IMG/VR virus record: IMGVR_UViG_3300002294_000003
Span: 1 to 64,000 of that record
Length of the DNA stretch: 64,000 nucleotides
Origin: an uncultured virus (IMG/VR IMGVR_UViG_3300002294_000003)
Lineage: Duplodnaviria; Heunggongvirae; Uroviricota; Caudoviricetes
Reading direction: 5' to 3' (one strand)
Position 1 is the first letter of the stretch. Each line of letters starts with the position of its first letter. Below the pieces are notes generated by a model. The model worked only from the letters and a program-made list of their open reading frames with translations, had not been told where the DNA came from and searched no databases. Position numbers and translations under genes: made by a program. Below, piece by piece: positions 7,625-33,867 of this stretch.

Positions 7625-7702
7625 ATATATAGTTTACTGCAAAAAAAGCGGCTTGTCAATAAACACAAATAAAGGAATGTATAATAGTTTTTGGAGGTCA
7701 TA

Positions 7703-8497
7703 ATGACACTAAAATCTATTTATGATATTGAATTAAATTCGGCAGATGGAGAGCCTGGTTTTTTACAGCAATTTAAGGGCAAGGCTGCTATTGTTGTAAA
7801 TACTACCGTTGGATGTGGCAATGCCAATCAAATGGAAGTTTTGCAATGGCTGCAAGAAAAGTATGGCGGAGATCAATTTCAAATTATTGCTATTCCAACT
7901 AACGATTACTGTGGACCAGGAGTTACTTATGGAAAGTGGTCTGAGGGAATTACCTGTGGTTTAGATTCTCAAAATTATGGCCAAGATGTTTATGGAACTA
8001 CATTTAAGTTTTCAGAAATGGTATCATCAATTCCTCAGCCTGGTGTAAGCGTACAACTTGGAGTAGAGCCAGGACACAATGGATTGGGACAGCCAAATGG
8101 CGAACCCCATGAACTTTATTTAACAATTAGAGAACACCAGCTTGCTGCAAAAGAAGTATTGAAAGCAAACGGCCTTGACCCCTACAATATGTTTAAAGAT
8201 AAATACTTTTCATATTGGCTCAATATGGGCTTTTATAACGGAGATCAAATGGGCGGAAACTTTGAAAAATATTTAATTGATAAAGATGGATATGTTCACA
8301 AGCATTTTCAATGTACCACACTAAATATTGATGTTGAAAGAACAATTAAAGAAGTTGGTGTTGATGGAAACATGGAAATTGGCGTTGGTCCTGGACGATC
8401 CAAAAAGATATTTGAAGAAGAATGGACAGTGATTTGTCAAGAAATTGAGCAGCTAATTGCTGGTCAAAAATCCATTATTAATCCCACATCTAACTAA
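7703..8497 (+). CDS. glutathione peroxidase-family protein (Cys type) with insertions
   Basis: SIYDI..KGKAAIVVNTTVGCG, IIAIPTNDY, NFEKYLIDKDG motifs; GGAGG RBS. Confidence 0.85.
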   Translation: MTLKSIYDIELNSADGEPGFLQQFKGKAAIVVNTTVGCGNANQMEVLQWLQEKYGGDQFQIIAIPTNDYCGPGVTYGKWSEGITCGLDSQNYGQDVYGTTFKFSEMVSSIPQPGVSVQLGVEPGHNGLGQPNGEPHELYLTIREHQLAAKEVLKANGLDPYNMFKDKYFSYWLNMGFYNGDQMGGNFEKYLIDKDGYVHKHFQCTTLNIDVERTIKEVGVDGNMEIGVGPGRSKKIFEEEWTVICQEIEQLIAGQKSIINPTSN

Positions 8498-8527
8498 TAT
8501 TTCATTTTGACAATGATATAATTAGGT

Positions 8528-8755
8528 ATGGATAAGATTAAGACTGATGTTCAGAACGCCAAATGGCATACCCTTTGGCAAAAACGCATGGCCGAAAATA
8601 AGCCACGTGAAGGCGATTACAACTTTGTGGTTTGGAAGAATGGCTCTGAAATAATTATAGAGCCATGGAATAAATCAGTTCCCCCGTCAGTATATACTAA
8701 GGGACAATGGGTAGTCTTGGCATCAGATTATAGAGAGGACAATGATGGCAGGTAA
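8528..8755 (+). CDS. hypothetical protein, leaderless
   Basis: TATAAT-N5-ATG. Confidence 0.6.
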   Translation: MDKIKTDVQNAKWHTLWQKRMAENKPREGDYNFVVWKNGSEIIIEPWNKSVPPSVYTKGQWVVLASDYREDNDGR

Positions 8756-8887
8756 AAAAACAAAAGGAGAAAGAAACTCCAACAGGCAAAATGGCAAGGC
8801 AAATAAAAAAAGGCCACTAGTATTTGATCCTGAAAAAAGAAGGCTTGTAAGAGCAAAATAGCATTTTTTGAGGTATATAATAGAAGT

Positions 8888-10772: not shown

Positions 10773-10929
10773 TATTTGGGAAGAACTCAAGTCTATTAAA
10801 AAAGATCTTGATGCTATTGAAATGCAACTTGGCATGAATAATGAAGCAATAGAATCTATTGAAATGGAGCTAAGATTTTTACAAGCAGAGCTGGATTACG
10901 AAGCCAGGGGCAATAGCTCAGCAGGTTAG
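10765..10929 (+). CDS. small coiled-coil protein; 3' end overlaps a tRNA
   Basis: ORF track; heptad pattern. Confidence 0.5.
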   Translation: MNNIWEELKSIKKDLDAIEMQLGMNNEAIESIEMELRFLQAELDYEARGNSSAG

Positions 10930-10980
10930 AGCAAACGACTCATAATCGTTCGGTCCTGGGTTCAAGTCCCAGTTGCCCCA
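10907..10980 (+). tRNA. tRNA with CAT anticodon (Ile2 or elongator Met)
   Basis: GGGGCAA/TTGCCCC acceptor; AACGA-CTCATAA-TCGTT; TTCAAG T-loop. Confidence 0.9.
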
Positions 10981-10981
10981 C

Positions 10982-11057
10982 GCCCCCATAGCCCAATGGT
11001 AGAGGCAGCAGACTTAAAATCTGTTCAGTGTCAGTTCGAATCTGACTGAGGGCACCA
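10982..11057 (+). tRNA. trnL: tRNA-Leu(TAA), short variable arm, encoded CCA
   Basis: GCAGA-CTTAAAA-TCTGT; TTCGAA; one C-A mismatch in the acceptor stem. Confidence 0.9.
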
Positions 11058-11674: not shown

Positions 11675-11698
11675 TCCATGCTGTATAATAGTATTACT

Positions 11699-12367
11699 AT
11701 GACAAAATTAGCTATTGCTGTTCCCACTCGTGGTAGGCCACACAATTTATTGAGACTTGCGAATGCCCTAAAAGAAACTTGTACTGTCGAATATCAGCTT
11801 TTTGCTCGTATTGATAATGATGACACATCTCCATACATAGAGCTAGAAAATACAACTTATCTTGTTGGGCCTAGAATATTTTATGCTAAATCAGTTAATG
11901 AAATTGCACAAAAGGCATTAGAGGATGGCTTTACACATATTGCAATCCTTGGCGATGATGTTTTGCCTGAAACAAAAGGCTGGGATAAGATAATGATTGA
12001 TTCTTTATCAGATCTTGGAGTTGCATACGGAAGTGATGGCTTAGAGCATCTGCATGGACAAGATCTTCCAACACATGTAGTTGTTCCAATTGAAATGTAT
12101 AAACGTTTGGGCTGGATTGCATTACCAACACTAAGACATTTATTTTGCGACAATGTTTGGAGAGAGCTTGGCAAGATGACCAACTTTATTTATCATCCAC
12201 AGGTGAAGCTATCCCATTTGCATCGCTGGAATCAGAAAGCCCCAGATGATGAAATTTATCAGCAAGCAAATGATAAGCGTAAGCGTGAACAAGATAAAAA
12301 AGCATTTGAGACTTGGAAGAATGGAAAAGGCCTACAAATTGCCAAAAAGGCTTTATCGCAGCAATGA
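11699..12367 (+). CDS. glycosyltransferase family 2
   Basis: IAVPTRGR, IDNDD, LGDD (DxD-like), FCDN. Confidence 0.85.
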   Translation: MTKLAIAVPTRGRPHNLLRLANALKETCTVEYQLFARIDNDDTSPYIELENTTYLVGPRIFYAKSVNEIAQKALEDGFTHIAILGDDVLPETKGWDKIMIDSLSDLGVAYGSDGLEHLHGQDLPTHVVVPIEMYKRLGWIALPTLRHLFCDNVWRELGKMTNFIYHPQVKLSHLHRWNQKAPDDEIYQQANDKRKREQDKKAFETWKNGKGLQIAKKALSQQ

Positions 12368-13023
12368 TGCAGGATATTAGTTGGCTTGACCCCGTAGTGG
12401 ATGCACATAAAAAATATTTTGTAGAAAAAGCTTTTAGAATAATTGATGTTGGATCTCGTGATGGAGATGATGCTCAGTGGCTTTTGTCACAATTAGGAGA
12501 TGAAGACGAGTGTAAGGTTATTTGCATAGAAGCAAGAGAAGCAGCAGCTCTTGAAATTAGAAACAAATATCCAAACTTCGCAGTATTTCAAACAGCAGTT
12601 TCTAATTTTATTGGAGAAGCCAAATTTGTACAAATGAATGATCCAGAATTTTTGGGCTCATCTTCCCTTGAGCTAGTAAGAGCAAATGCATATCCAATAG
12701 AAAGCACACTCATAGATGTTCCAGTAACAAGATTAGATGCCATAATTGAACCAGGGATAATTGATATTTTAAAAATAGATGTTGAAGGACACTCTGTTCC
12801 AACAATTGAGGGCATGGGAAGCCTAATAAAAGATGTTTTAGTTGCTCATATTGAGACTGAAACACCTGAAAGGTCTGCCTGGGGAGAGCCATCAAATAAT
12901 TTAAAAGTTATTGAAATTATGCAAGACCTTGGATTTTGTTTGGCAAACGTTAGCTATCAGTGGGGATGGAGTATTCAAGACCAGACTTGGGTAAACACAA
13001 AACATGAAAGATATAGGAATTAA
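12364..13023 (+). CDS. FkbM-family methyltransferase
   Basis: IIDVGSRDG, RLD..IDILKIDVEG. Confidence 0.88.
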   Translation: MMQDISWLDPVVDAHKKYFVEKAFRIIDVGSRDGDDAQWLLSQLGDEDECKVICIEAREAAALEIRNKYPNFAVFQTAVSNFIGEAKFVQMNDPEFLGSSSLELVRANAYPIESTLIDVPVTRLDAIIEPGIIDILKIDVEGHSVPTIEGMGSLIKDVLVAHIETETPERSAWGEPSNNLKVIEIMQDLGFCLANVSYQWGWSIQDQTWVNTKHERYRN

Positions 13024-13026
13024 TAA

Positions 13027-14076
13027 ATGACAGTTGTTGCATTATCACATGGCTATCCGCCACTTTGGAATATGGGCGGAGAAGTTTCACTTCATAGAAC
13101 TATGAAGGCAATAAAAGAAGAATCGTACGTTTTGACCAAAACAGATAGGTCATACACTTTTGAGGGCATTAACGTAAGACAAATTAATACTCCAGATGTT
13201 TTAGATATAAATGCAGATCCAAGGCCAATTGCCCAGCAGCTCGCAGAACTAAATGCTAGAGTTGTTATTGGACAAAATGAATTATCTTTGCCAGCTGTTT
13301 TGGCTGCTAAAGATATTGGTGCAACCTCAATTGTTAATGTTCATACCCCTCCAAAATATGGTGGCGGAATCTCAGCTGCAATGTTAGAATCAGATTATGC
13401 CATTTATAATACAAGAGCTGCGGCAAAAGAGTGGGGAGAGCCTGATGCATTTGTTTTGCATCCACCAATTAGCCCAATTCCAAACAGCATTAGCAATACT
13501 GGTGATGCGTATACCCTCTTGTCATCTTTAACAAATAAAGGTGTCACAGTCGTAATTGATTTAGCAAAAATATATCCCAACAAAAGATTTATAATAGTCA
13601 GGTCGCCAGCTGAACCAACGCATGGCCTTAAAGATATTGAAGAAATTGTTTCCAAAATTCCAAACATAGAGCTTCATCCCAGAGTGGCTCCAGAAAATGT
13701 AGATATATATTTAAAACAAACCAGAATACTATTAGTGCCATCCAGATATGAAACATATGGAATGTCTGCAATTGAGGCAGCTGGCTATGGAATTCCATCA
13801 GTGCACGTTGACACACCCCATGTTAGGGAGGGTATTGGCGGTGCTGCAGTATTAATAAAACCACTTAATGTAATGGGTGCCCAAAGAGGAATTAACCAGA
13901 TAGAAAAGTATTACAATAAGTTTAGTGAAAATGCTAGGCTGAAGGCTGAGTCTCTTCATGCAAGACAAGAAGTGGAGCTAAGTCAATTTGCTGAGCTAAT
14001 TGAAACCATAAAAAAGCCAGCCAGCAACGACTTACGCAGAAAATCAATAGCTTTAGCTACTAGAAAATACTTTTAG
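13027..14076 (+). CDS. glycosyltransferase family 4 (GT-B)
   Basis: YPP..GGE; LLVPSRYETYGMSAIEAAGYGIP. Confidence 0.88.
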   Translation: MTVVALSHGYPPLWNMGGEVSLHRTMKAIKEESYVLTKTDRSYTFEGINVRQINTPDVLDINADPRPIAQQLAELNARVVIGQNELSLPAVLAAKDIGATSIVNVHTPPKYGGGISAAMLESDYAIYNTRAAAKEWGEPDAFVLHPPISPIPNSISNTGDAYTLLSSLTNKGVTVVIDLAKIYPNKRFIIVRSPAEPTHGLKDIEEIVSKIPNIELHPRVAPENVDIYLKQTRILLVPSRYETYGMSAIEAAGYGIPSVHVDTPHVREGIGGAAVLIKPLNVMGAQRGINQIEKYYNKFSENARLKAESLHARQEVELSQFAELIETIKKPASNDLRRKSIALATRKYF

Positions 14077-14775
14077 CTCGTATCTTGATGGAATGCAAAA
14101 CATATTTTTTAGCATTCTATCGTAAGCCATTCCAAAAGAGCTATCTTGTGTTGAAAAAAATGGATACTTAAAGCTTAGATATTCATAACTTTTAAAATCA
14201 TATTTTGGATCTGAATAAACCTTGACATCATCTATTACTTCAATTTGATCTTCTGATAAAAATCTATTTCCATAGTTTGATCTCCACATTACATTTTCTT
14301 TAGCTATTATTGATAGCTTGCTTTTGCTAATAAGCATTGGTGCATGTGTTTCAAAATCTAGTGGAACATCTCTATATTTCTTACAATGCCTCAATAAATG
14401 ATTTAACCTTTTAATATATGGGGAATTGACTCCGTTTGATTTATTAAAAACTATTTTATTATATAGTGTCCCAGACGAGTATGCCTTTATATTTGGAACA
14501 TATCTAACAAAAAAGAAGTCATCATTCATAATAACTATTTCGTCTGGTATGTTTGGATTATCCATTATTGCAATCAAGCTATTTTTTACATTTTGAAAAG
14601 CATCTGCTACTTGCCTAATTGGTATAAAATTCCCAACGTACCAGTCTGGCTTGCCCCCAACAACCCAGACAGTAGAATTTGGGTAGAAGGTTTGAGCAGA
14701 GCGTAGCGAATATCTAAGCTCTTCGTTATCTCCATTTCTACAAATGTATACAAACACTATTTCTTTTTCCAACAT
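14053..14775 (-). CDS. Stealth-like hexose-phosphotransferase
   Basis: EELRYSLRS, KPDW, MNDDFF, THAP motifs. Confidence 0.7.
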   Translation of the reverse strand: MLEKEIVFVYICRNGDNEELRYSLRSAQTFYPNSTVWVVGGKPDWYVGNFIPIRQVADAFQNVKNSLIAIMDNPNIPDEIVIMNDDFFFVRYVPNIKAYSSGTLYNKIVFNKSNGVNSPYIKRLNHLLRHCKKYRDVPLDFETHAPMLISKSKLSIIAKENVMWRSNYGNRFLSEDQIEVIDDVKVYSDPKYDFKSYEYLSFKYPFFSTQDSSFGMAYDRMLKNMFCIPSRYELKVFSSS

Positions 14776-16469: not shown

Positions 16470-16862
16470 CTACCTGATCTCAATCTGCTTTGGCTTTAGT
16501 TCCTCTGGCATATTGCGTTTTAGATCAATGTACAGAATACCGTCAAATGCTGAAGCATCCGTTATCTCAAAGTATTCTGGCAGGGAGAATGAGCGAATAA
16601 ATTTACGAGTAGCAATTCCCTTGTAAATATATTCATCATCCTTTCCTAGCTTTTCACCCTTGATCGTTAGAACTCCTCTTTCTACTGAAAGCTCTAGCTC
16701 TCCACGACTAAATCCAGCAACAGCGAACTCCATTATAAAGTGATCATTGTCTACTTTCTTTACGTTATAGGGTGGATAGTTTGTTTTTTGCATTGGTGCA
16801 CCAAATAACTTATCGAATTCCCGACTAAGTTGTGCAAATGGATCTACATAAGATACCATCAT
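16470..16862 (-). CDS. small heat shock protein Hsp20
   Basis: NYPPYNV, FAVAGF, YKGIATRKFIRSF, DGIL. Confidence 0.93.
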   Translation of the reverse strand: MMVSYVDPFAQLSREFDKLFGAPMQKTNYPPYNVKKVDNDHFIMEFAVAGFSRGELELSVERGVLTIKGEKLGKDDEYIYKGIATRKFIRSFSLPEYFEITDASAFDGILYIDLKRNMPEELKPKQIEIR

Positions 16863-17535: not shown

Positions 17536-17919
17536 CTATTCTACCACATCCATGTTTTTGGAGGGTAGAAACTTTAACAGTTCTTTATAAGTTCTATCAA
17601 TTTCGCTCTCTTTGTCAGACTCCATGGCTTTATATAGGGCCTCAATAGCAGTCTGGACTTGTTCAATATATTCATATGCTCCATCCCTGGAGTCAGAGAG
17701 AAACTTAATAAAGTCGTTCTCTATGCTTGGACCATTGTTTACTATAAAAGATAGTCTATCTATTTCTTCTGACAACACATTTTTATCGACAAATAGTTGT
17801 GCTATAACTGAAATGAATTTGTTATTCTTAATCTTTAGTACAATAGCGATAATTGATAAAGCCAATATGATTGATGCAAGACCAGCTAAAATTAAGACAT
17901 TGATTAATTCTGAACTCAC
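17536..17919 (-). CDS. membrane-anchored hypothetical protein
   Basis: N-terminal TM segment. Confidence 0.7.
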   Translation of the reverse strand: MSSELINVLILAGLASIILALSIIAIVLKIKNNKFISVIAQLFVDKNVLSEEIDRLSFIVNNGPSIENDFIKFLSDSRDGAYEYIEQVQTAIEALYKAMESDKESEIDRTYKELLKFLPSKNMDVVE

Positions 17920-18398
17920 TGGCTCTCCTTATGTGTTACCCAGTAATATTTGCAAGTATCGCAGCAAGGCTGATTGTATTTGCTAATAGTTGCAGACTCA
18001 AACTCAAAGTAGAATTCTGGATCTTTATAAAACAGATTTGCTTTATGGGTCGTAGTTACAAATTTCATAATTTCTGAGTTCTGATACCATTTTGGAAAAC
18101 CGCTCCCCCAGTTCTTGATGTTATTAGTTCTCAGAGTTATCAAGTTGTTTGTATTCTTGTCTGTCTTAATTCCTCTATAGTTTGCTTCACGAATCATAGA
18201 AGACACATAGTCATACAGAGATACTTCAAAGTCCTTCCACATTTTTACTGCTGGATGATTTCTCCAACCAGCGTGTGGATCATTGCTGGATAAAACCTTA
18301 AGTATTTGATAGCATTCAAGTATTTGCTTGTTTAATCTTTTGGAGTCAAGCATTTTGGCTACGGTATCAAAATCTTTTGATGGCAAAAATGTTTGCAT
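17916..18398 (-). CDS. pyrimidine-dimer DNA glycosylase / MSMEG_6728-family protein
   Basis: MQTFLP..LDSKRLNKQILE..WRNHPAVKMW..HKANL. Confidence 0.85.
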   Translation of the reverse strand: MQTFLPSKDFDTVAKMLDSKRLNKQILECYQILKVLSSNDPHAGWRNHPAVKMWKDFEVSLYDYVSSMIREANYRGIKTDKNTNNLITLRTNNIKNWGSGFPKWYQNSEIMKFVTTTHKANLFYKDPEFYFEFESATISKYNQPCCDTCKYYWVTHKESQ

Positions 18399-20700: not shown

Positions 20701-21519
20701 TTAGCTTAAAATGCCAGCATCCGTTAGCTCTCCTAGGAATTCATGCACCACTTTGGGGTCATGCCACTGGTCAAATTGGCTAAAAAGAATGTCTGTAACC
20801 CCAAGCTTTTCAAGCTCTAAAAACTTTTTTGTTAATGTTTCTTTTGAGCCATAGATAGGTGAGCTATCAGTTGTTCTATTTTCTTCTGGAATATTCGCAA
20901 CCTCTTGTTCTGCTGCCTCATCGGTTTCTCTTACTAAAACAGACAAAAATATAAAAATCTTTTTAAACTTTCTGCTTGTAAACTTTTCTGGATCTTCCAT
21001 AAAAGATTCATAAAATGTAGCAACAATATCGGATGTTTCTTTTGCCAAATCTAGCGATTCTTTTGATGATCCTGACACTAAAATTTCTGGCATTTCATAT
21101 GGAATATAAACATTAGTTTCATTTAAGAATTTATGCATAAATTGTTTAGCATACTCTTTTCTATAATTATTATCGTGTAGTTGTTCGCCGTGCATAATTC
21201 CATCAAATGTTTCTTTAGGACCAATTATGCCATGAACAAGATTTAGCATTAATCGGTTATTGGATATTTGATTGAATGACGCTATTAGCATAGCCAAATA
21301 CTGTGGACTAAATAAATATGGTCTTACTGCAATCATATACTTAAATTTATGATTTTTATTTACTGAGCTAGATAGTCTTGTCCACATATCTCCAAGCCTA
21401 GAATGTACAGTAAACAATACAGATTCATATCCGTATGGATCTAGCTCTTCTGTAAGAGCTTTAATGCTTTCTGGTGTCTCTGGTGGTCTATATCTATTTA
21501 TCCAATGTTTTCTTATCAT
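20701..21519 (-). CDS. LLM-class (SsuD-like) flavin monooxygenase, copy 1
   Basis: GYESVL..D.W..KYMIAVRP..SP..NQISNNRLMLNLVHG; IYGS..LEKLGV. Confidence 0.8.
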   Translation of the reverse strand: MIRKHWINRYRPPETPESIKALTEELDPYGYESVLFTVHSRLGDMWTRLSSSVNKNHKFKYMIAVRPYLFSPQYLAMLIASFNQISNNRLMLNLVHGIIGPKETFDGIMHGEQLHDNNYRKEYAKQFMHKFLNETNVYIPYEMPEILVSGSSKESLDLAKETSDIVATFYESFMEDPEKFTSRKFKKIFIFLSVLVRETDEAAEQEVANIPEENRTTDSSPIYGSKETLTKKFLELEKLGVTDILFSQFDQWHDPKVVHEFLGELTDAGILS

Positions 21520-21719
21520 TTACGAATGCCCCACTTAATTCTAGACCATATTCTTTCATGGAAAAAGTAAACAATAATTTTAATAAATATTTCAATACTT
21601 ACAATTGCTGTTGCCATCTCAAGTTTTCCAGTAACGATAAATGAAATAATAAACGTATTTAGACTTTGCCAAAATCTATATGTCAAAGCCTTTGTAATGG
21701 AGCGAGCATTAGATTCCAA
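21516..21719 (-). CDS. DUF2061 membrane protein, copy 1
   Basis: RSITKALTYR..YFFHERIWSRIKWG; TTG start. Confidence 0.85.
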   Translation of the reverse strand: MESNARSITKALTYRFWQSLNTFIISFIVTGKLEMATAIVSIEIFIKIIVYFFHERIWSRIKWGIRK

Positions 21720-22473
21720 GTTCTTTTCTCTTCTGTGTAGCAGAGATTGCCTGGATTTCTGGTGGAAGATCAATGTGTTCTATTTTGTAGCCAACATCCC
21801 TACCATATACAATATTGGTAATATTTGGTAGCTTTACCACCAATGTGTGTTCATGTATACTTCCGTCACTTTTAAGTATTCTTTTTCTAACTTCCTCATA
21901 AGTGAGCGGATCTTTTTCCGAAGTCCCATATGTATTCCTAACTCCTATAAGAACTTGCTCTGTTCTTTTGTGGGCCTCCTGCTTCAATGCCTGATGTCCC
22001 TCATGCCATGGCTGATACCTGCCCAGCTGAAGGGTTGTTGGTGCAGACCAATCAAACAGATTAAATTCTTTAATAATTGTATCAGCTTTGGTGTCGTCTT
22101 CAAGTCTAGTAAAAGTAAAATCTACATAGCTTTCTGCAGGGTCTTGCCAGATTGTATTTGTATCGCTATATCTTCCTGCATCAATAGTATTCATCCATAT
22201 TACAATATCTGACTTTCCAAATGCTGTTCTGGCAGACTGCGTTGGACATACAAAATCTGCAATAACAATATGACCTTGTTTTGACAGAAGCCTTGCTACT
22301 GCACCAATTCTTCTTGCCTGCTCAATCCTATCGTCAACGCTAAAGCTTAAGTCGCTGCTCAGGTCCTCCCTGACATCGTCACCATTTAATAAAATTGCAT
22401 TAGTTCTGCTTGCAAGCTCTTTAGCTAGGGTAGTTTTTCCACTACCAGGAAGCCCAATTATCTCAATAATCAA
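21709..22473 (-). CDS. cysC: adenylyl-sulfate kinase fused to a HIGH-type nucleotidyltransferase
   Basis: GLPGSGKTT, LNGDDVR, LSFSVDDRIEQARR; C-terminal GRYQPWHEGH..ISATQKR. Confidence 0.85.
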   Translation of the reverse strand: MIIEIIGLPGSGKTTLAKELASRTNAILLNGDDVREDLSSDLSFSVDDRIEQARRIGAVARLLSKQGHIVIADFVCPTQSARTAFGKSDIVIWMNTIDAGRYSDTNTIWQDPAESYVDFTFTRLEDDTKADTIIKEFNLFDWSAPTTLQLGRYQPWHEGHQALKQEAHKRTEQVLIGVRNTYGTSEKDPLTYEEVRKRILKSDGSIHEHTLVVKLPNITNIVYGRDVGYKIEHIDLPPEIQAISATQKRKELGI

Positions 22474-22712
22474 TTTTCCCCAACCAATCTATTCTCTACA
22501 AGTCGCTCTCGCTCATCAATAATTTGATAGGCAAATTTAGATAATTTGTCATAGCCTACTGCATTATTAACGATACTATTATAGTGATGGGAGCAAAACA
22601 ATAGCTCTCCATTTACGCCAACAGCTTTTACAAAAGCCTGGGCTGAGCAATATGCGTCACATCTATCTAAGGCTGTAAGTGTCCACTCAACCCTATCTTT
22701 AAGAACCTGCAA
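22470..22712 (-). CDS. actinobacterial-type small Zn-binding protein
   Basis: LTALDRCD..AQA..ELLFCSHH. Confidence 0.65.
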   Translation of the reverse strand: MQVLKDRVEWTLTALDRCDAYCSAQAFVKAVGVNGELLFCSHHYNSIVNNAVGYDKLSKFAYQIIDERERLVENRLVGEN

Positions 22713-22714
22713 AT

Positions 22715-22897
22715 TTACTTTCCTTTATCAGTTGAATAAAAGCCACCACCATTAAAGGTAACTCCTACAGAAGAGTATACTCTATTTAATGGCTTTTGAC
22801 AAGCTAGACATTCTGGAACTCTTTCTTTATCTGCAATGCCCCTAGAAATTGCAACTATGGCATCGCATGATCCACACTTATAGTCGTAAATAGGCAT
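22715..22897 (-). CDS. FmdB-family zinc ribbon protein
   Basis: MPIYDYKC..CLAC..GGGFYSTD. Confidence 0.85.
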   Translation of the reverse strand: MPIYDYKCGSCDAIVAISRGIADKERVPECLACQKPLNRVYSSVGVTFNGGGFYSTDKGK

Positions 22898-23721
22898 TAT
22901 GGTAGTTTAATAACCTGTCCAACTTTAATCTGATTTGCACTCTTAAGCTTATTTAAACTAACAAGCTTTTGAACCGTGGTTTTATACTTAAATGCAATTC
23001 CACTAAGTGTATCCCCAGATACTACTTTATGTGCCTTTACAGGGGCCTTTGAAGGCTTTTGAGGGGCATTTGTGGCTGGCTTGGTAGCTTTTGGTACAGG
23101 CTTAGAAACTGGCTTTACAGCGGGCTTTGGCTTAACCTCAATCGGCTTGGCACTAGCTCCTGGGGTATTTGGAGAGCTGGCCTTGTTTGATGGGGCAGAT
23201 CCAACATTAGCATAATCTGCAGCCCCCTCAAGGGCAATTAAAGACTTCATAAACTCAATTGGCTCAACGAAGCCCTTGCCGTCATCAGACCATCCATGCG
23301 TCTTTCCTTTCCAGATTTCCCAGTGCAAATGAACACCAGTGCTCATACCACTGGTCCCCATCGTTCCAAGCAAATCTCCAGCTTTAACCTTATCCCCCTG
23401 CTTTACTTTCATAGAGCCTTTTACAAGGTGGGCATACAAAGAACTATAAAATTGACCATTAATGTTATGAGTAATTTTTACATAGTACCCAAAACCGCTT
23501 GGCTCACCATTGTCTTGCTTTGTTTTAGATGGTCCAGCATATGTAACAGTTCCAGGATACGGGGCATAGATACCACGATCTTTTCCAGCGGTATAAATAA
23601 TGTCAGTTCCGTTGTGGTGTTTGCGTGTTTTCTTTACTGGGTGTATTCTCCAGCCCATATAGCTAGTCACCTTCCAGTGCTTACCCAGCAAACCAGAAAG
23701 TGGCATTTGTGCTTTAGCCAT
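22897..23721 (-). CDS. endolysin: M23 peptidase plus C-terminal LysM
   Basis: HNGTD, YAHL, STGVHLHWE; VVSGDTLSGIA..GQVIKLP. Confidence 0.9.
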   Translation of the reverse strand: MAKAQMPLSGLLGKHWKVTSYMGWRIHPVKKTRKHHNGTDIIYTAGKDRGIYAPYPGTVTYAGPSKTKQDNGEPSGFGYYVKITHNINGQFYSSLYAHLVKGSMKVKQGDKVKAGDLLGTMGTSGMSTGVHLHWEIWKGKTHGWSDDGKGFVEPIEFMKSLIALEGAADYANVGSAPSNKASSPNTPGASAKPIEVKPKPAVKPVSKPVPKATKPATNAPQKPSKAPVKAHKVVSGDTLSGIAFKYKTTVQKLVSLNKLKSANQIKVGQVIKLP

Positions 23722-23756
23722 AAAAACTCCTTTTTAATAATTATATCACGAATCAG

Positions 23757-23829
23757 AGCTACCCAAGAGGCTCGAACTCTTGACCTTCCGCTTACAAGGC
23801 GGATGCTCTACCTACTGAGCTAGGGTAGC
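23757..23829 (-). tRNA. trnT: tRNA-Thr(TGT)
   Basis: GCTACCC/GGGTAGC; TCCGC-CTTGTAA-GCGGA. Confidence 0.93.
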
Positions 23830-23837
23830 ATTTATAA

Positions 23838-24425
23838 CTATGCCGCTAATTTAACTATCTTTTTATGCATATCTACTGCCTCTGCTATAAAATCTAAGCT
23901 GCTAACCAAATTATCGATTTCTAGCCTAAGCTTACTCTTTTCTCTTGGCATATGACCATCGTGGCTATCTCCCCAAACCTTATTGTTTTCAAAACTAATA
24001 TCATTTATGGTTAAATTTTCTTTTCCAGGAAGATAGCTAAAATTAAATCTATTAACAATTTTTTTGATTTCTTGTATCGCATCAGCCTTAGCATTATTAA
24101 AATTAATAATATGGATATTGTCTGAATATTTTGTTGCATAATCTACATATTTTTGATAATTTAAAAATGCTTGTTCTGCAGGTTGATACATTGACCTTAT
24201 ATCAAATCCAAGTTCTGTGTTTTCTAATTGCTTATATAGTAAAGAAGCAATTGATTCTTCTGGATTTCTAAATATAGCCACATTGAAAATTTCTTTTACT
24301 TGGTATATTTCTGGTATATGAACACTTGAGATCATGTCCAATGACAACGTTTGACGTGCCACATTGCTCATAAAAACATTTCCAGATCTAGGAAATGAAT
24401 TAAAAATAAGCTGACAATGATTCAT
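23838..24425 (-). CDS. sulfotransferase-like protein
   Basis: 5'-PSB-like SFPRSGN and 3'-PB-like RNPEESIAS. Confidence 0.7.
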   Translation of the reverse strand: MNHCQLIFNSFPRSGNVFMSNVARQTLSLDMISSVHIPEIYQVKEIFNVAIFRNPEESIASLLYKQLENTELGFDIRSMYQPAEQAFLNYQKYVDYATKYSDNIHIINFNNAKADAIQEIKKIVNRFNFSYLPGKENLTINDISFENNKVWGDSHDGHMPREKSKLRLEIDNLVSSLDFIAEAVDMHKKIVKLAA

Positions 24426-24473
24426 TTATAACTCCTTACATATATTATATCATTTAAGTAATTAATATGGTAT

Positions 24474-25352
24474 TTAAATTGTGGTATTTCCATCTATATA
24501 TTTTTTAATATATTGAATCATATTTGGGCGTTCTTTTTCGGGAGAACCGCTTAGAAGAACCTCAGATATGTTTTCTGATTCTATTTTTTTTATAAAATTA
24601 CAAAATTCTCTATATGTAAAATATTCAGTATCTGTTGTAGCTCTTTCTCTATCTATATAGCTACCCCCACCATAAGTGTGTATAAGTTTATCTTGGGGAA
24701 ACTCCGTGTCTATTTCTTCCTGGGTTTCTCTTATAATTGGAGCAATGGCTAACATAATTTTTTGATCAGAAATATCTAATTTTGCACCTGGTTTTGTTTG
24801 GCCAGAAATTTCTCTATCTAAAAAATAATTATTCTTATAAACAGCATAAGGTAAAATAATTTTTTCTTTTAGCTCAGTTGCTTTTTCATAAGAAAAAATA
24901 TTTGTACAGCTTACATAATAGTCTGGAATTTCAATTTTGTCATTTTTTTTCATTTTAGAAAGTTCTTCTATATAATTTATTAAATAATTGGTTCTATCCT
25001 TTACAGAGGAATAGTCTGTTATTTCTCCAACAAATCCATCAAAATCTATTTCATTTGGTTTTATGTGCCCAGCAATTAAATTAATTTGAAGCCTATCTTT
25101 TTGTACTTCATTCATTGATTTATTTATCATACAAAGATATTGGGCAGAGATGGTGTGTGGCCTTATTGCAATCATATATTTTATTTTTTGATTTAAATCT
25201 AAGCTTCTGGCTATTTTTGTAAAAAAATCACCCTGGTATGGATTATAAGTAAATAACACGCCATCAAAACTATTTTTTTCTAAATTATTAATAGATGAGA
25301 CATTGTTTCCATCCTCTGGCCCAAGATATCCACCAAAATAATAAAACTTCAT
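24474..25352 (-). CDS. LLM-class (SsuD-like) flavin monooxygenase, copy 2
   Basis: FDGVLFTY..GDFFT..KYMIAIRPHTISAQYL..RLQINLIAG. Confidence 0.75.
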   Translation of the reverse strand: MKFYYFGGYLGPEDGNNVSSINNLEKNSFDGVLFTYNPYQGDFFTKIARSLDLNQKIKYMIAIRPHTISAQYLCMINKSMNEVQKDRLQINLIAGHIKPNEIDFDGFVGEITDYSSVKDRTNYLINYIEELSKMKKNDKIEIPDYYVSCTNIFSYEKATELKEKIILPYAVYKNNYFLDREISGQTKPGAKLDISDQKIMLAIAPIIRETQEEIDTEFPQDKLIHTYGGGSYIDRERATTDTEYFTYREFCNFIKKIESENISEVLLSGSPEKERPNMIQYIKKYIDGNTTI

Positions 25353-25384
25353 TTTATAACTATACCATTCGTTGTTTGTTTGAG

Positions 25385-25457
25385 CAGTCCCAACGGGATT
25401 CGAACCCGTGCTACCGCCGTGAAAGGGCGGTGTCCTAGGCCTCTAGACGATGGGACC
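25385..25457 (-). tRNA. trnE: tRNA-Glu(TTC)
   Basis: CCGCC-CTTTCAC-GGCGG; TTCGAA. Confidence 0.93.
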
Positions 25458-25461
25458 TCAG

Positions 25462-25535
25462 CGACTCCGATGGGACTTGAACCCACGACCCCCACCGTGA
25501 CAGGGTGGTGCTCTAACCTACTGAGCTACGGAGCC
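25462..25535 (-). tRNA. trnD: tRNA-Asp(GTC)
   Basis: CCACC-CTGTCAC-GGTGG; TTCAAG. Confidence 0.93.
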
Positions 25536-25539
25536 AATA

Positions 25540-26148
25540 TTAAAATGCGTTTAGTATCTTAGTTGTAACTTTATAAACATCATTTGCTGTATTTATAAAT
25601 AGTTGTTGGTCATTGGCAGATTTAATAAAACTATTAAGCTTTGCTTTATAGTTATCACGGTATTGCTTAATATCAAGGTCAAAGTCATAGAATGACATTT
25701 GAACTTCTGACAAACCGTATGACTGCTGAAGAATTCTTTTTAGAATTTGGCCACCAGAAATATCTCCAAGATATCTAATATAGTGATGTGCCAAAAGCTC
25801 TACTGGACTAGCATTACCAATCATAATCATATATTCATTAACATGATCTGTTAGCTTGCCATTAAAAGTAATAACTTTATCCAAGTTACCAAGGTCTGCA
25901 GAAATCTTCCAAGACCTTTCTAGCTTATCATCAAAAAACATTCCAATAAGATCATCGTCAAGGTTGTCTCTGACAGTTATTTCAAGAGTATCATACACAT
26001 ACATCAAGACAGTCAAGTACTTTACATATGAATCAATTGGCAAACTTCCCTTGAATAGGCTTTGCATAAATTCGGTTTGTTCTGCATCAGAGTGGTTTTG
26101 CTCTGTTTGCCTTTTTAATTCCTCAGTAAACATTTTTTCCTTTATCAT
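25540..26148 (-). CDS. heme oxygenase (HmuO/Ho1-like)
   Basis: LKRQTEQNHSDAE (proximal His); LLAHHYIRYLGDISGGQIL; FYDF. Confidence 0.9.
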   Translation of the reverse strand: MIKEKMFTEELKRQTEQNHSDAEQTEFMQSLFKGSLPIDSYVKYLTVLMYVYDTLEITVRDNLDDDLIGMFFDDKLERSWKISADLGNLDKVITFNGKLTDHVNEYMIMIGNASPVELLAHHYIRYLGDISGGQILKRILQQSYGLSEVQMSFYDFDLDIKQYRDNYKAKLNSFIKSANDQQLFINTANDVYKVTTKILNAF

Positions 26149-26245: not shown

Positions 26246-26246
26246 G

Positions 26247-26318
26247 CTCCCCCTCGTGGATTCGAACCACGAACCTTAGAGTTAACAGCTCTCTGCTCTG
26301 CCGTTGAGCTAAGGGGGA
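26247..26318 (-). tRNA. trnN: tRNA-Asn(GTT)
   Basis: TCCCCCT/AGGGGGA; CTGTTAA loop; TTCGAA. Confidence 0.92.
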
Positions 26319-26323
26319 TGGCC

Positions 26324-27109
26324 TTATCTGTTGGTAGCAGCTGCTATAGCAGTTGCAACAGAAGTTGTGTTTCCAAGCATAACTGGATTTGGATCAGTTA
26401 ATGTGATTGGAAAGGAGTCGTGTAGGCCTTGCAAAGCACTACGCTGACTCTTAAGAACTGCACTTGTATAAACTCCAGCAGTAACAACTATATCAGATAG
26501 TCTAGTGCTGCCTACAAAATCAGAGGAGCCTACTGCAATAGCATCTGCAATACATGCTGGGTAATCAACTCTATTGCCACTTGCATAGTTTCCAGATGCA
26601 GCATAAAACTTAATACCATTAGCCTTTAAGCTAGCAAGAGCATTAACAATATTCTGGTGTGTAGTTGCTATCTTTACACCTGGTGAAGATGGTGTGCAAC
26701 GTCTGCCATCTCCTGCGTTATAAGAAAACGATACAGCCTTAATATTAAACTTTGATGCATTCGCAGATACCCAGCTTAGTGCAGCCACAAGCTGAATGCC
26801 AGTTACTTGGCCAGTCTTAGTTGTTCCAGACTCAAGCAGGATTAGGTGTGCTGATGGATTGTTGGCCCTAATGACATCTGCCATCATAGTGCCGTGGTTA
26901 AATGCCTTAAATTCAGATGCAATTCTGAGTTTTGGTGTTGAGTTACAGATTACCTGTGCAGTAATGCAAACTTCAGTTACTTGGCCAGTAATTAGCTGTG
27001 ATTCAAAATTAGCATCAATTATGACAATTGATCCATCTGTATTTGCTTGTGCTGGTACGATTCCCACAAAGCCAATTAGCATAGCAATGAGAAGTGCTAT
27101 CTTTTTCAT
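26324..27109 (-). CDS. secreted subtilisin-like (S8) protease
   Basis: Signal peptide (AQA); IID, NHGT, AASGN, YPAC, TSVAT. Confidence 0.75.
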   Translation of the reverse strand: MKKIALLIAMLIGFVGIVPAQANTDGSIVIIDANFESQLITGQVTEVCITAQVICNSTPKLRIASEFKAFNHGTMMADVIRANNPSAHLILLESGTTKTGQVTGIQLVAALSWVSANASKFNIKAVSFSYNAGDGRRCTPSSPGVKIATTHQNIVNALASLKANGIKFYAASGNYASGNRVDYPACIADAIAVGSSDFVGSTRLSDIVVTAGVYTSAVLKSQRSALQGLHDSFPITLTDPNPVMLGNTTSVATAIAAATNR

Positions 27110-27976: not shown

Positions 27977-28162
27977 TTATTCGTCGTCTTTTTCATAGCG
28001 TAATGGGAAGGTTATTACCCATACACCAAGGGTCACCCAGATTAGCATTCCTACTACATCTTTGGCTGATCCCTCCAAGACTACCCAGGCAACGAACATA
28101 CCCAGAAGTGTCCAGGCTTGATCTACAATGTCCTTAAATAGTGCTTTGATGAATTTAATCAT
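27977..28162 (-). CDS. small 2-TM membrane protein
   Basis: Hydrophobic; coupled to the upstream gene. Confidence 0.7.
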   Translation of the reverse strand: MIKFIKALFKDIVDQAWTLLGMFVAWVVLEGSAKDVVGMLIWVTLGVWVITFPLRYEKDDE

Positions 28163-30285
28163 TACGGCCTCCTTGCTGCAGCTGCTGCTGCACTAGTGGC
28201 TGCTGTCGTAGCAGTCATTGCAATTTGTCCCACAATGACGGCTGCGATAACAACCTTTTCTGATTGTTCACGGACTTGTGGAGACATGTCTGCTCCAGCA
28301 TTTCCAAGTGCGTTAAATACTTCTACTGCTGCCCCTGCAACATCTCCCAATAATGGAACTGCAGCTAATGCTTCGTCTAAAACTATGTCGTCCTGTTGAG
28401 CTGCAACCAGCAATGCATCCAATGCTGCCTCGTATTCTTCAGAGCCTGGCTCTGCTGTTTCAAATACCTGTAAAGCTGCCTCTTTAATTGCTTCTGCCTG
28501 TGCTTCAGTTAGTTGTGTAGGCTCAATGCTTGTAAGCTCTTCAACAAGTGAAACAATGTTTTCAGCCGACACCTCTTCTTCTAGCTGCACTGGTGCTTCT
28601 GGATCAGTAGGCTCTGGCTCAGGAGTTGGTTCTGGTTCTGGAGCAGGTTCTGGTTCAGTTACTGGTTCTTCGGTTGGCTCTTCAGTTGGTTCTGGTTCAG
28701 GACTTGGTTCAGGCTCTGGGGTAGGTTCTGGCTCTGGTGTGGGATCAGGCGTTGGCTCAGGCTCTGGGGTAGGTTCTGGTGTTGGTTCTGGTTCTGGGGT
28801 AGGTTCTGGTGTTGGTTCTGGTGTTGGTTCTGGTTCTGGGGTAGGTTCTGGTGTTGGTTCAGGCTGTGGAATTACAACTGGTTCTGGAGCAGGGGTAGGG
28901 GCTGGTAAATTAGCAATAGCATCTGCTGTAACTACATAGGCAGTTTGAACTTTTGTTTCTGCGTTTTCAACAACAATAATTAAATTACTTATAACATTTT
29001 GTGTATTTTGTAATGCTGTTGTAAATTCTGATAATGCCTGTGCTTCCACAACATTAGCTTGTGAAGATATTGATTGTGCAATTGCAAGTGAGGAAGAGGC
29101 CTGCTGAACAACTATTGTTTGTAAGCTTTGTTGTGTTTGTAAATTAACGAGTGTTGCTGAAGCAGAATTTACTACCTGTTGCTGTTGACTAATTAATTCT
29201 GCAGAAACAGAATCTACTATTCTTGGAGACATTGTAAAGATAGTCCCACCATTGGAATATCTAACACCAATTCTTGGACCACCATATAAGCCAGAAGTAT
29301 TTCCAGATATTTCAGAATATCCAGTCCATTCTCCAGTAGCTGGATCAACTAGCATATTCCAAACTACATTTGTCAGTGGGCCATTGGCATCTCCAAATCT
29401 ATGCAATGACCACTCAACTGTTAAAGTATTGTCAGTGGTTGTTACTTTAGTATATGCCCCAGCTCCTGCTGTCATCCAGTCAGATTGATATACGTATATA
29501 CCAGTTGTCTGTGGCCAATCCCAAAAAGTGTGATCTCCCTGCCCAAAAGAAATGAATGCCTTAGATGTTACATAAATTTGACTGGCACTCCCCTGGCCTT
29601 CATATAGCGTGTTTCCCATTCTGATATCAAATGGGACATCTATTTTTGTAGACTGATCCCACATTGGTGGAAGTATAACGCTAGTAGTAGATGCTGTGCT
29701 TGCCTCTACTGAATTTGTCCAGCCTGAGCTAGATATTTGAAAACTATTTGATGGTACATTAGTTAAAGCATTTAGTTCAGATTGCTCTTGTTGGACTACC
29801 TGTTGCTGTCCTGATACCGCTGCACTAATGGATGATAGGTTAATTACTGCTTGGCTGTAACTTGTTTGTGCTACAGTTAAATTAGAATCTGCTAGTTGTG
29901 AGGAGGCTACTGCAAGCTGATAAGAGTCTTGCTTTTGTTTAACATCCCATAGGGCATCAGAGGCACTTGATAAGGCTTGAGAGGCTTCTGCTACAGCCGT
30001 AGTAGCCAAGGCTATCACTTCTGAGACGGAAGCAATGCTTGTAGATCCACCACCAACTAGTTGCTCTACTAAGGCACTTGTACTAGCTAGGTTTTCTGTT
30101 ACAACCTGTATCTCAGATGTTGCCGTAGTCACGGTGATTTCTGCTTGAGTGACTTGCTGATCTAATGTTAGGGTAACCGAAACCACTGAAGAAGATTCTT
30201 CTGCGTGTGCTAAATCTGCAGCCAAAAAAGTTGGCAAAAATGCTAAAGACATAGCAATAAAAACTTTTAAGTTTTTGCTCTTAAT
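28162..30285 (-). CDS. large exported protein with coiled coils, a beta domain and a Pro-Glu-Thr repeat stalk
   Basis: Signal peptide (AHA); (PE/PT)n; hydrophobic C-terminus; probable ATT start (first ATG at 30252). Confidence 0.75.
28590..28905 (-). repeat. coding tandem repeats encoding PEPTPE
   Basis: ggttct/ggtgtt/ggctca repeats. Confidence 0.85.
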
Positions 30286-30396: not shown

Positions 30397-30786
30397 TTAC
30401 TGGTCTAAATTTGAGTCAATAAGCTCAAACCCATTTTCTCTGTTTAGATATTGCCATTGAATATTTGTAATGCCAAATGTTTCCCAAAGATATCCTATAA
30501 CCATCTTGTGATCTAATTCACCACAAGTGTAAAGATCAAACTGCAGAATCATTGGGTCTTTCTTTTCCCAAATGTGAAATGCAATGTGTGATGTTTCTAC
30601 AGATACCGCTGCAGTTACTCCTTCATTCCCTGGCATATCAACATACTTTGAAACTGGGCCTGCTGCAATTTTCATATCAATGAGTTCAACAAGCTCCTGT
30701 AACCATAGCTTTGCGTACTCTTCAGTTTTAATTGGTTTTGTTATTTCTGCTCTAACCATTAAGTGTAAGTGTTTTAGTTCTTTCAT
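30397..30786 (-). CDS. speD: S-adenosylmethionine decarboxylase proenzyme
   Basis: HLHL..GVTA..ETSHIAFHIW..FDLYTCG. Confidence 0.82.
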   Translation of the reverse strand: MKELKHLHLMVRAEITKPIKTEEYAKLWLQELVELIDMKIAAGPVSKYVDMPGNEGVTAAVSVETSHIAFHIWEKKDPMILQFDLYTCGELDHKMVIGYLWETFGITNIQWQYLNRENGFELIDSNLDQ

Positions 30787-30799
30787 TATTTGCCTATCT

Positions 30800-33867
<3,068 letters not shown>

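Follow-up and report, generated by a model that had tools for sequence, protein, structure and literature searches.

We analysed a 64,000-nucleotide stretch of DNA (hereafter, the window), which is the first 64 kb of the IMG/VR record IMGVR_UViG_3300002294_000003, a linear virus sequence of 76.4 kb that is ~67% complete, and focused on a cassette of five minus-strand genes around a 254-aa fusion protein, in which an adenosine 5′-phosphosulfate (APS) kinase-type domain precedes a nucleotidyltransferase (NT) domain and which might supply 3′-phosphoadenosine 5′-phosphosulfate (PAPS) for sulfation (Table 1). An annotation made earlier from the DNA letters alone (the sequence-only reading) had described the fusion gene as overlapping a DUF2061 gene that in turn overlaps a gene for a luciferase-like monooxygenase (LLM), with a second LLM and a sulfotransferase-like gene nearby, and the open reading frames (ORFs), the DNA and the Pfam matches bear out this arrangement. 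The fusion and DUF2061 genes overlap by 11 nt, and the TGA stop codon of the latter overlaps the ATG of LLM1 by 4 nt (ATGA). The longest DUF2061 ORF spans 21516-21773; given that the homologues begin with MESN and that the DNA at 21719 reads TTG GAA TCT AAT, we placed the gene at 21516-21719. Upstream of the fusion, the sulfotransferase-like gene begins at a distance of 1.37 kb and LLM2 at 2.0 kb; both are separated from the fusion, DUF2061 and LLM1 trio by the genes for a DUF7455 protein, a Zn ribbon protein, an M23 peptidase with LysM and a tRNA-Thr. The DUF7455, Zn ribbon and M23 peptidase genes flank the module in related actinophage loci with or without an LLM or a sulfotransferase and belong to the phage backbone, outside the pathway. 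In a blastn search of the region against cultured phages, matches were limited to tRNA genes, which correspond to the tRNA-Thr of the window, and a LysM stretch.

Table 1. Features of the cassette and of the genes interspersed with it (window positions).
Feature	Position	Strand	Properties
LLM1, 272 aa	20701-21519	-	PF00296 Bac_luciferase, 8e-14, 52.1 bits (cut-off 27.9)
DUF2061 small membrane protein, 67 aa	21516-21719	-	PF09834, 1.2e-17, 64.4 bits (cut-off 23.1), full profile 1-52
Fusion protein, 254 aa	21709-22473	-	APS_kinase and CTP_transf_like (Pfam)
Fusion residues 145-254, HxGH NT domain of ~110 aa, candidate ATP sulfurylase	21712-22041	-
Fusion residues 1-142, APS-kinase-type P-loop domain with shortened lid	22048-22473	-
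DUF7455 protein	22470-22712	-	Pfam; intervening backbone gene
Zn ribbon protein	22715-22897	-	Pfam; intervening backbone gene
M23 peptidase with LysM	22897-23721	-	Pfam; intervening backbone gene
tRNA-Thr(TGT)	23756-23829	-	ARAGORN; between the M23 peptidase and sulfotransferase-like genes
Sulfotransferase-like protein, 195 aa	23838-24425	-	Sulfotransfer_1, E 0.0015, 18.4 bits (below cut-off 22)
LLM2, 292 aa, paralogue of LLM1	24474-25352	-	Bac_luciferase, E 0.0029, 17.4 bits (below cut-off 27.9)

Pfam, motifs and fold all support the earlier description of the fusion as an APS-kinase-type domain joined to an HxGH nucleotidyltransferase. Residues 2-84 matched APS_kinase (6e-20, 72.3 bits, profile positions 4-91 of 152). 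A single-sequence AlphaFold2 model of the fusion reached a predicted local distance difference test score (pLDDT) of only 46.6, and we therefore used a model built from a 20-sequence alignment (pLDDT 90.2); the best Foldseek matches to its kinase domain were all APS kinases, so that, by predicted fold, residues 1-142 are an APS kinase. The Walker A motif GLPGSGKT and the residues D32, R35, F44 and R49 are invariant in all 20 aligned family sequences, and a (D)F(V)xP motif is invariant or nearly so across the family. In a HMMER alignment to human PAPSS1, these four residues face D89, R92, F101 and R106, which we take to be the APS-contacting residues, and (D)F(V)xP faces FISP.

The NT domain matched CTP_transf_like at residues 151-202 (7.2e-5, 23.4 bits) and carries the motifs GRYQPWHEGH, YGRDVGY and ISATQKR. 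The whole fusion corresponds to PHROG 10255 over its full length (E 2.7e-67), and a word-based search with it retrieved 4521 proteins at E<=0.001, including plain CysC proteins in an undetermined proportion. No longer proteins with the NT domain emerged from the word-index search; an exhaustive profile search with 26 NT domains yielded 114 cluster representatives at E<=1e-30, and 22 odd-length matches were scanned with Pfam. We found the NT domain joined to an APS kinase in four architectures: the kinase-NT order of the window fusion; a split form with kinase and NT encoded by adjacent genes, in five of the viral loci read and in most of the Pelagibacteraceae loci within a set of 80 loci; the reverse NT-kinase order (P0255 and P0291); and, in the 311-aa protein P0203, a canonical, full-length CysC placed after the NT domain (211.9 bits to PF01583, positions 2-151 of 152). 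That CysC keeps LDGDN, FISP and KGLYKKARAG...FTGI, and P0203 belongs to a cluster of seven members on several contigs. These architectures, the join to canonical CysC included, fit a minimal PAPS synthase. One further odd-length NT protein has an N-terminal membrane domain (DUF4118) and another a weak match, below cut-off (23.6 bits), to DHHA1, a domain of 3′-phosphoadenosine 5′-phosphate (pAp) phosphatases.

P0163, P0199 and P0191 are single metagenomic proteins in which the NT domain is joined to chorismate synthase, the 3-dehydroquinate synthase C-terminus or ubiquitin hydrolase fragments, and these joins may be gene-calling or assembly chimeras. Two cultured phages, Xylella phage Sano (L001) and Stenotrophomonas phage DLP6 (L002), encode full-length fusion homologues of 37-41% identity, which are annotated as "kinase" or as hypothetical proteins; in Sano, a gene annotated as cysteine dioxygenase lies 3 kb upstream of this homologue. 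These phages infect plant-associated and soil bacteria and are possible laboratory models.

Gene co-occurrence links the fusion to sulfotransferases in both phage and bacterial loci, as would be expected from the pathway initially proposed. Of the 50 related viral loci, 21 have a sulfotransferase-like ORF no more than 7 kb from the fusion, five of the 21 being counted through an unverified P-loop family, and a sulfotransferase lies near the fusion or the split pair in 8 of 83 cellular loci. In one viral locus (L018), a gene matching Sulfotransfer_1 in Pfam overlaps the start of the fusion and DUF2061 follows the fusion; in another (L025), a Sulfotransfer_2 gene stands beside capsule-type glycosyl- and pyruvyl-transferases; a third (L034) has an inorganic pyrophosphatase gene directly upstream of the fusion, and in other loci the fusion or pair is embedded in glycan clusters. 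Sister phages carry 2-oxoglutarate (2OG) oxygenases beside the module. On the cellular side, a Sulfotransfer_3 gene lies 12 nt downstream of the fusion (L137) or a TPR-Sulfotransfer_3 gene is divergent from it (L054), and two loci (L057 and L061) have an arylsulfotransferase nearby, the former with a sulfatase as well.

The 195-aa neighbour in the window, described as sulfotransferase-like in the sequence-only reading, is predicted to be a sulfotransferase-fold protein by structure matching in the ESM Atlas, with feature scores of 0.95-0.97 and template modelling (TM) scores of 0.68-0.78 to viral and bacterial clusters that include sulfotransferases; most of these rows are "under the bar" for naming, and the Pfam match is below cut-off. 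FPRSGN (residues 11-16) and FRNPEESIAS (residues 52-61) sit where we presume the 5′-phosphosulfate-binding (5′-PSB, PKxGTT-like) and 3′-phosphate-binding (3′-PB, RNPxDxxxS-like) motifs for PAPS to be. A scan for related loci with this protein alone returned near-identical kin only, and its homologues occur in just 3 of the 50 fusion loci; other lineages use other sulfotransferase families. In two loci with a split kinase gene, a 213-225-aa P-loop-like protein (TGPQGSGNH) is encoded directly before that gene (L042 6363-7001, L053 6305-6979); it is unconfirmed as a sulfotransferase, with no Pfam match, weak Atlas leads at 0.93 and membership in a viral cluster of 9886 members.

In phages, DUF2061 regularly accompanies the fusion. 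It occurs in the fusion flank in 24 of the 50 viral loci, mostly directly downstream, including in relatives of 39% identity (L036-L038), and lies upstream instead in L042-L045; a single cellular locus (L087) has it, beside a gene that encodes only the kinase. The DUF4118-fused form of the NT domain hints that membrane placement matters. A predicted complex of the fusion with DUF2061 scored 0.00 in a run without controls, which counts neither for nor against an interaction, and the titles and abstracts of the DUF2061 literature held nothing tied to sulfur. In many related actinophages (L152-L217, e.g. L199 5165-5400), another DUF2061-like ORF with a weaker match (E 1e-6 to 1e-16) lies upstream of the Zn ribbon gene, besides the copy that follows the fusion.

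The known enzymes of sulfate activation were not found in several cellular genomes that encode the fusion. Sat was found in none of the eight fusion-bearing alphaproteobacterial genomes outside SAR11, and in five of the eight (G004, G005, G013, G134 and G140) neither CysD nor PAPS_reduct scored above 35 bits, nor did AprA score above 27 bits. G140 consists essentially of a single 2.06-Mb contig and G004 is a chromosome of 4.0 Mb, the others being of unknown completeness. G004 and G005 have no APS-kinase homologue besides the fusion, and G005 and G140 are the two alphaproteobacterial genomes in which a sulfotransferase stands directly beside the fusion. In Pelagibacter, the split genes lie between a Rieske oxygenase or methyltransferase gene and enoyl-CoA hydratase/CoA_binding genes (L107, L103 and L128, ~8000-8780); the Pelagibacter genomes with the split pair have a separate full-length APS kinase, and one has a strong Sulfotransfer_3 gene elsewhere.

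The two LLMs are paralogues (29% identity, BLASTP E 1e-22) and belong to a clade of 37 proteins, every one of them encoded on a metagenomic contig; most measure 254-283 aa, and three are fragments of 173-227 aa. All seven PDB matches of the family profile were SsuD, MsuD, SfnG or an unnamed LLM (E 1e-16 to 1.6e-3), and the best NCBIfam model was that of SsuD (TIGR03565), with 62.8 bits for LLM1 and 22.2 bits (E 6.4e-5) for LLM2 against a cut-off of 518.2. In the alignment to Escherichia coli SsuD (1m41_A), Arg226 and His228, presumably active-site residues, face Phe and Ser in LLM1 and Ala and Ala in LLM2, and ~55 residues after SsuD position 271 (~271-326) and the C-terminal tail, about 100 residues in all, are absent. 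LLM1 and LLM2 are therefore no equivalents of SsuD and belong to a short, phage-borne clade nearest SsuD, MsuD and SfnG; the SsuD part of the sequence-only reading is not upheld in its original form. SsuD would, moreover, release sulfite, which is no substrate of ATP sulfurylase. No flavin reductase gene was seen near the LLMs.

Nor are the LLMs core members of the pathway; we read them as optional, lineage-specific accessories. A scan for related loci with LLM1 alone returned near-identical kin, one fragment and one relative of 30% identity (L142), and we used an LLM alignment instead. The fusion lies within 6 kb in 43 of the 81 viral LLM loci thus collected (16 of 31 among those with full flanks), and a sulfotransferase-like ORF is present in 30 of the 81. 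DUF7455 - LLM - sulfotransferase - fusion - DUF2061 is the usual order; the LLM precedes the fusion in 38 loci and follows it in five, with a median gap of 1.1 kb. The LLM-carrying phages share one backbone, so these loci are not independent. The LLMs may oxidise or hydroxylate the acceptor, as the 2OG oxygenases of sister phages might, or may process an organosulfur compound.

These findings bear on the classical auxiliary metabolic gene (AMG) explanation, according to which viral "cysC" and "ssuD" boost host sulfur assimilation for phage production, with sulfonates converted to sulfite, sulfate routed via PAPS, and both leading to cysteine. Such genes are listed together among the organosulfur and assimilatory AMGs by Kieft et al. 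(bioRxiv 10.1101/2021.01.05.425418), and the only named PDB relatives of the LLM family are sulfonate and sulfone monooxygenases. We nevertheless consider this explanation very unlikely: the LLMs have neither R226 nor H228 of SsuD and are missing about 100 of its residues, the recurrent neighbours of the fusion are sulfotransferases and glycan genes, the preprint, in the parts consulted here, contains 0 mentions of sulfotransferases, and no cysH, cysI/J or cysK was found among the scanned ORFs, which comprised most window ORFs of at least 120 aa, those of at least 50 aa between 17 and 30 kb, and ORFs of the remaining 12.4 kb of the record.

We favor, with a probability of roughly 0.55, a module for sulfation rather than for host cysteine synthesis, in which a predicted two-gene core, the 254-aa "mini PAPS synthase" and DUF2061, feeds the nearby sulfotransferase; a PAPS-for-sulfation function appears plausible and is well supported by comparative genomics. 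The C-terminal HxGH domain would adenylylate sulfate (ATP + sulfate -> APS + pyrophosphate), and the N-terminal lid-less kinase, judging from its fold and conserved APS-contacting residues, would phosphorylate the 3′-OH of APS to produce PAPS. The 195-aa sulfotransferase-like protein could then use PAPS to sulfate an acceptor during infection, with DUF2061 perhaps contributing membrane tethering or anion handling. Much of this had been anticipated in the sequence-only reading, which envisaged a minimal PAPS synthetase feeding the sulfation of a glycan, protein or DNA: the architectures and the sulfotransferase context speak for it, as do the pyrophosphatase gene upstream of the fusion in L034, the predicted fold and PAPS-binding motifs of the 195-aa protein and the gene overlaps in the window; the ATP-sulfurylase activity of the 110-aa domain we infer from the fusions, gene context and missing enzymes, and none of the three kinds of target is indicated.

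Several observations weigh against this reading. In the kinase, the lid (KGLYKKAR...FTGI, ~20 residues) is replaced by a short (A/E)GRYxDTN and the first Asp of DGD is Asn, which explains why the domain scores 67 bits with the apsK model TIGR00455, below the cut-off of 138.7. The NT domain, at ~110 aa, lacks everything that Sat has beyond the HxxH core: PF01747, the family of Sat-type ATP sulfurylases, gave no match to the fusion at E<=0.01, ATP sulfurylases account for 0 of the 35 PDB matches of the NT profile at E<=10, and the sole alignment to the HxxH of the PAPSS1 sulfurylase has an E-value of 780. Its nearest relatives in both sequence and fold are nicotinamide mononucleotide adenylyltransferases (NMNATs), so the caution of the sequence-only reading that the HxGH domain looks NMNAT- or cytidylyltransferase-like was correct. 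Among the viral LLM loci with full flanks, 15 of 31 have the LLM without the fusion module. Three of the eight alphaproteobacterial genomes (G003, G215 and the unpublished G212, on which the count of three partly depends) have strong CysD/CysH, and in a sample of 301 Alphaproteobacteria genomes CysD is absent from four of the six fusion-positive genomes versus 128 of 301 overall; with so many sampled genomes lacking CysD, the missing-enzyme pattern is suggestive, not decisive, and the phyletic signal is weak on its own. Finally, the split pair of SAR11 is surrounded by C1 and organosulfur genes, with no sulfotransferase nearby, and a canonical CysC is present as well.

The kinship with NMNATs raises the alternative that only the kinase half acts on sulfur, converting host APS to PAPS, and that the HxGH domain is an NMNAT-type enzyme that supplies the phage with NAD or another dinucleotide. 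The domain indeed carries the GRFQPxHxGH and ISxTxxR motifs of archaeal/NadM-type NMNATs on a Rossmann-like fold. It falls, however, far below the NMNAT cut-offs (19.7 versus 181.2 bits for the archaeal model TIGR01527, 25.6 versus 127 for NF002243), the PDB alignments reach only its first 60-70 residues, the family-invariant R179 faces a Gly of Methanocaldococcus jannaschii MJ0541, and the Arg of YGRDVGY has no aligned counterpart. As the same domain is also joined to APS kinases in four architectures, canonical CysC among them, and five fusion-bearing genomes lack a known APS source, we regard this alternative as unlikely. Quite improbable, in our estimate, is that the pair makes some other 3′-phosphorylated adenylyl compound, whether by a route resembling phosphopantetheine adenylyltransferase (PPAT) plus dephospho-CoA kinase or as a novel donor, with the "sulfotransferases" moving another group or using host PAPS.

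The source of the cassette is a tailed phage, with genes for portal, prohead protease, capsid and tape-measure-type proteins in the final 12 kb of the record, and its replication and nucleotide genes include DnaE-type Pol III alpha, DnaB, primase, RecA, and class I ribonucleotide reductase with NrdI. An actinobacterial host is suggested by its WhiB and DUF7455 genes. Freshwater and lake libraries hold near-identical sequence. Contigs of four freshwater and lake RNA libraries match parts of 20701-20793 and 21398-23822 at 90-100% identity, matches that may include DNA and do not demonstrate transcription, and the same contigs gave no coverage in 23977-25352.

A plus-strand, glycan-type group in the window at 11678-14775 comprises a glycosyltransferase-like PHROG, an FkbM methyltransferase and a GT1-family glycosyltransferase, with a weak Stealth_CR2-like gene on the minus strand at the same place; this group could build an acceptor for sulfation. 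At 28162-30252 (minus strand), a 696-aa protein with a long Pro/Glu/Thr-rich (10-residue)n repeat and a hydrophobic C-terminus is possibly a surface or fibre-like protein and conceivably a modification target. A 261-aa protein (26324-27109, minus strand) begins with a signal-like segment, matches a subtilisin-like model (QhpE) weakly (E 1.6e-4) and belongs to no Pfam family. Directly upstream of LLM2 lies a heme oxygenase gene (PF01126, 1.9e-38; 25540-26148, minus strand), the homologues of which, among the related loci, occur only in near-identical kin of the window. Six tRNA genes (Glu, Asp, Asn, Thr, Met and Leu) are located at 25384-25535, 26246-26318, 23756-23829 and 10907-11057, and four of the six are interspersed with auxiliary genes around the cassette and the heme oxygenase gene. 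Genes for AdoMet-decarboxylase-like, glutathione-peroxidase-like, Hsp20 and pyrimidine-dimer DNA glycosylase proteins lie at 30397-30843, 7691-8497, 16470-16862 and 17916-18398, respectively.

Two types of sulfate-activating enzymes are known, Sat and CysDN. Tentatively, and with less confidence than the sulfation module itself, we propose that the 110-aa, NMNAT-derived domain is a third kind of ATP sulfurylase, which would make the fusion a self-sufficient PAPS synthase in freshwater and marine phages, SAR11 and other Alphaproteobacteria and would enable sulfation in hosts unable to activate sulfate; the LLMs might couple organosulfonates to it or prepare the acceptor. If so, the domain would represent a new, minimal solution to sulfate activation and a compact PAPS-making tool, the pair as it occurs in SAR11 and in other bacteria without the classical enzymes would gain a function, and the abundant viral "cysC" of lakes and oceans would signal that some molecule of phage or host is sulfated, a type of modification that has received little attention in phages, rather than that host sulfur assimilation is boosted. 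The literature surveyed, judged by titles and abstracts, describes neither the fusion nor a sulfurylase role for its NT domain, and it holds no account of a phage sulfation kit.

The viral "cysC" AMGs reported by Kieft et al. (2021, bioRxiv 10.1101/2021.01.05.425418), which are abundant in marine and freshwater viruses, come nearly all from these two environments and are annotated as adenylylsulfate kinase, probably belong to the same family; the parts of that preprint consulted here interpret them as assimilatory sulfate reduction and mention no second domain, DUF2061 or sulfotransferases. In the PAPS synthases (human PAPSS1 1x6v, Aquifex aeolicus Sat-CysC 2gks, and CysN-CysC), the Sat part spans roughly 350-400 aa and includes a PUA-like domain, whereas the second domain of the fusion, of ~110 aa, is NMNAT-like and has no PF01747 match; the chains measure 546 (2gks) and 630 (1x6v) residues versus 254 here, where the kinase also lacks the lid. 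The NadM and archaeal NMNATs (Francisella 2qjt, M. jannaschii MJ0541 1f9a) are closest to the NT domain and have GRFQPxHxGH and ISxTxxR in common with it, but they are 168-181 aa long compared with 110 aa, and the NT domain has its own R179 and YGRDVGY and is always partnered with an APS-kinase-type domain. LLM1 and LLM2 share the luciferase-like superfamily with SsuD, MsuD and SfnG (7jv3, 1m41, 7oh2 and 8t0u), from which they differ in length (272 and 292 aa versus 371-404), in the replaced Arg226/His228 and in the absent ~271-326 segment. A parallel in logic is offered by NodPQ with NodH in rhizobia and RaxPQ with RaxST in Xanthomonas, each a private PAPS supply encoded beside its sulfotransferase; these systems employ CysD/CysN/CysC-type enzymes, whereas in the window cassette the same supply would be provided by a single 254-aa protein.

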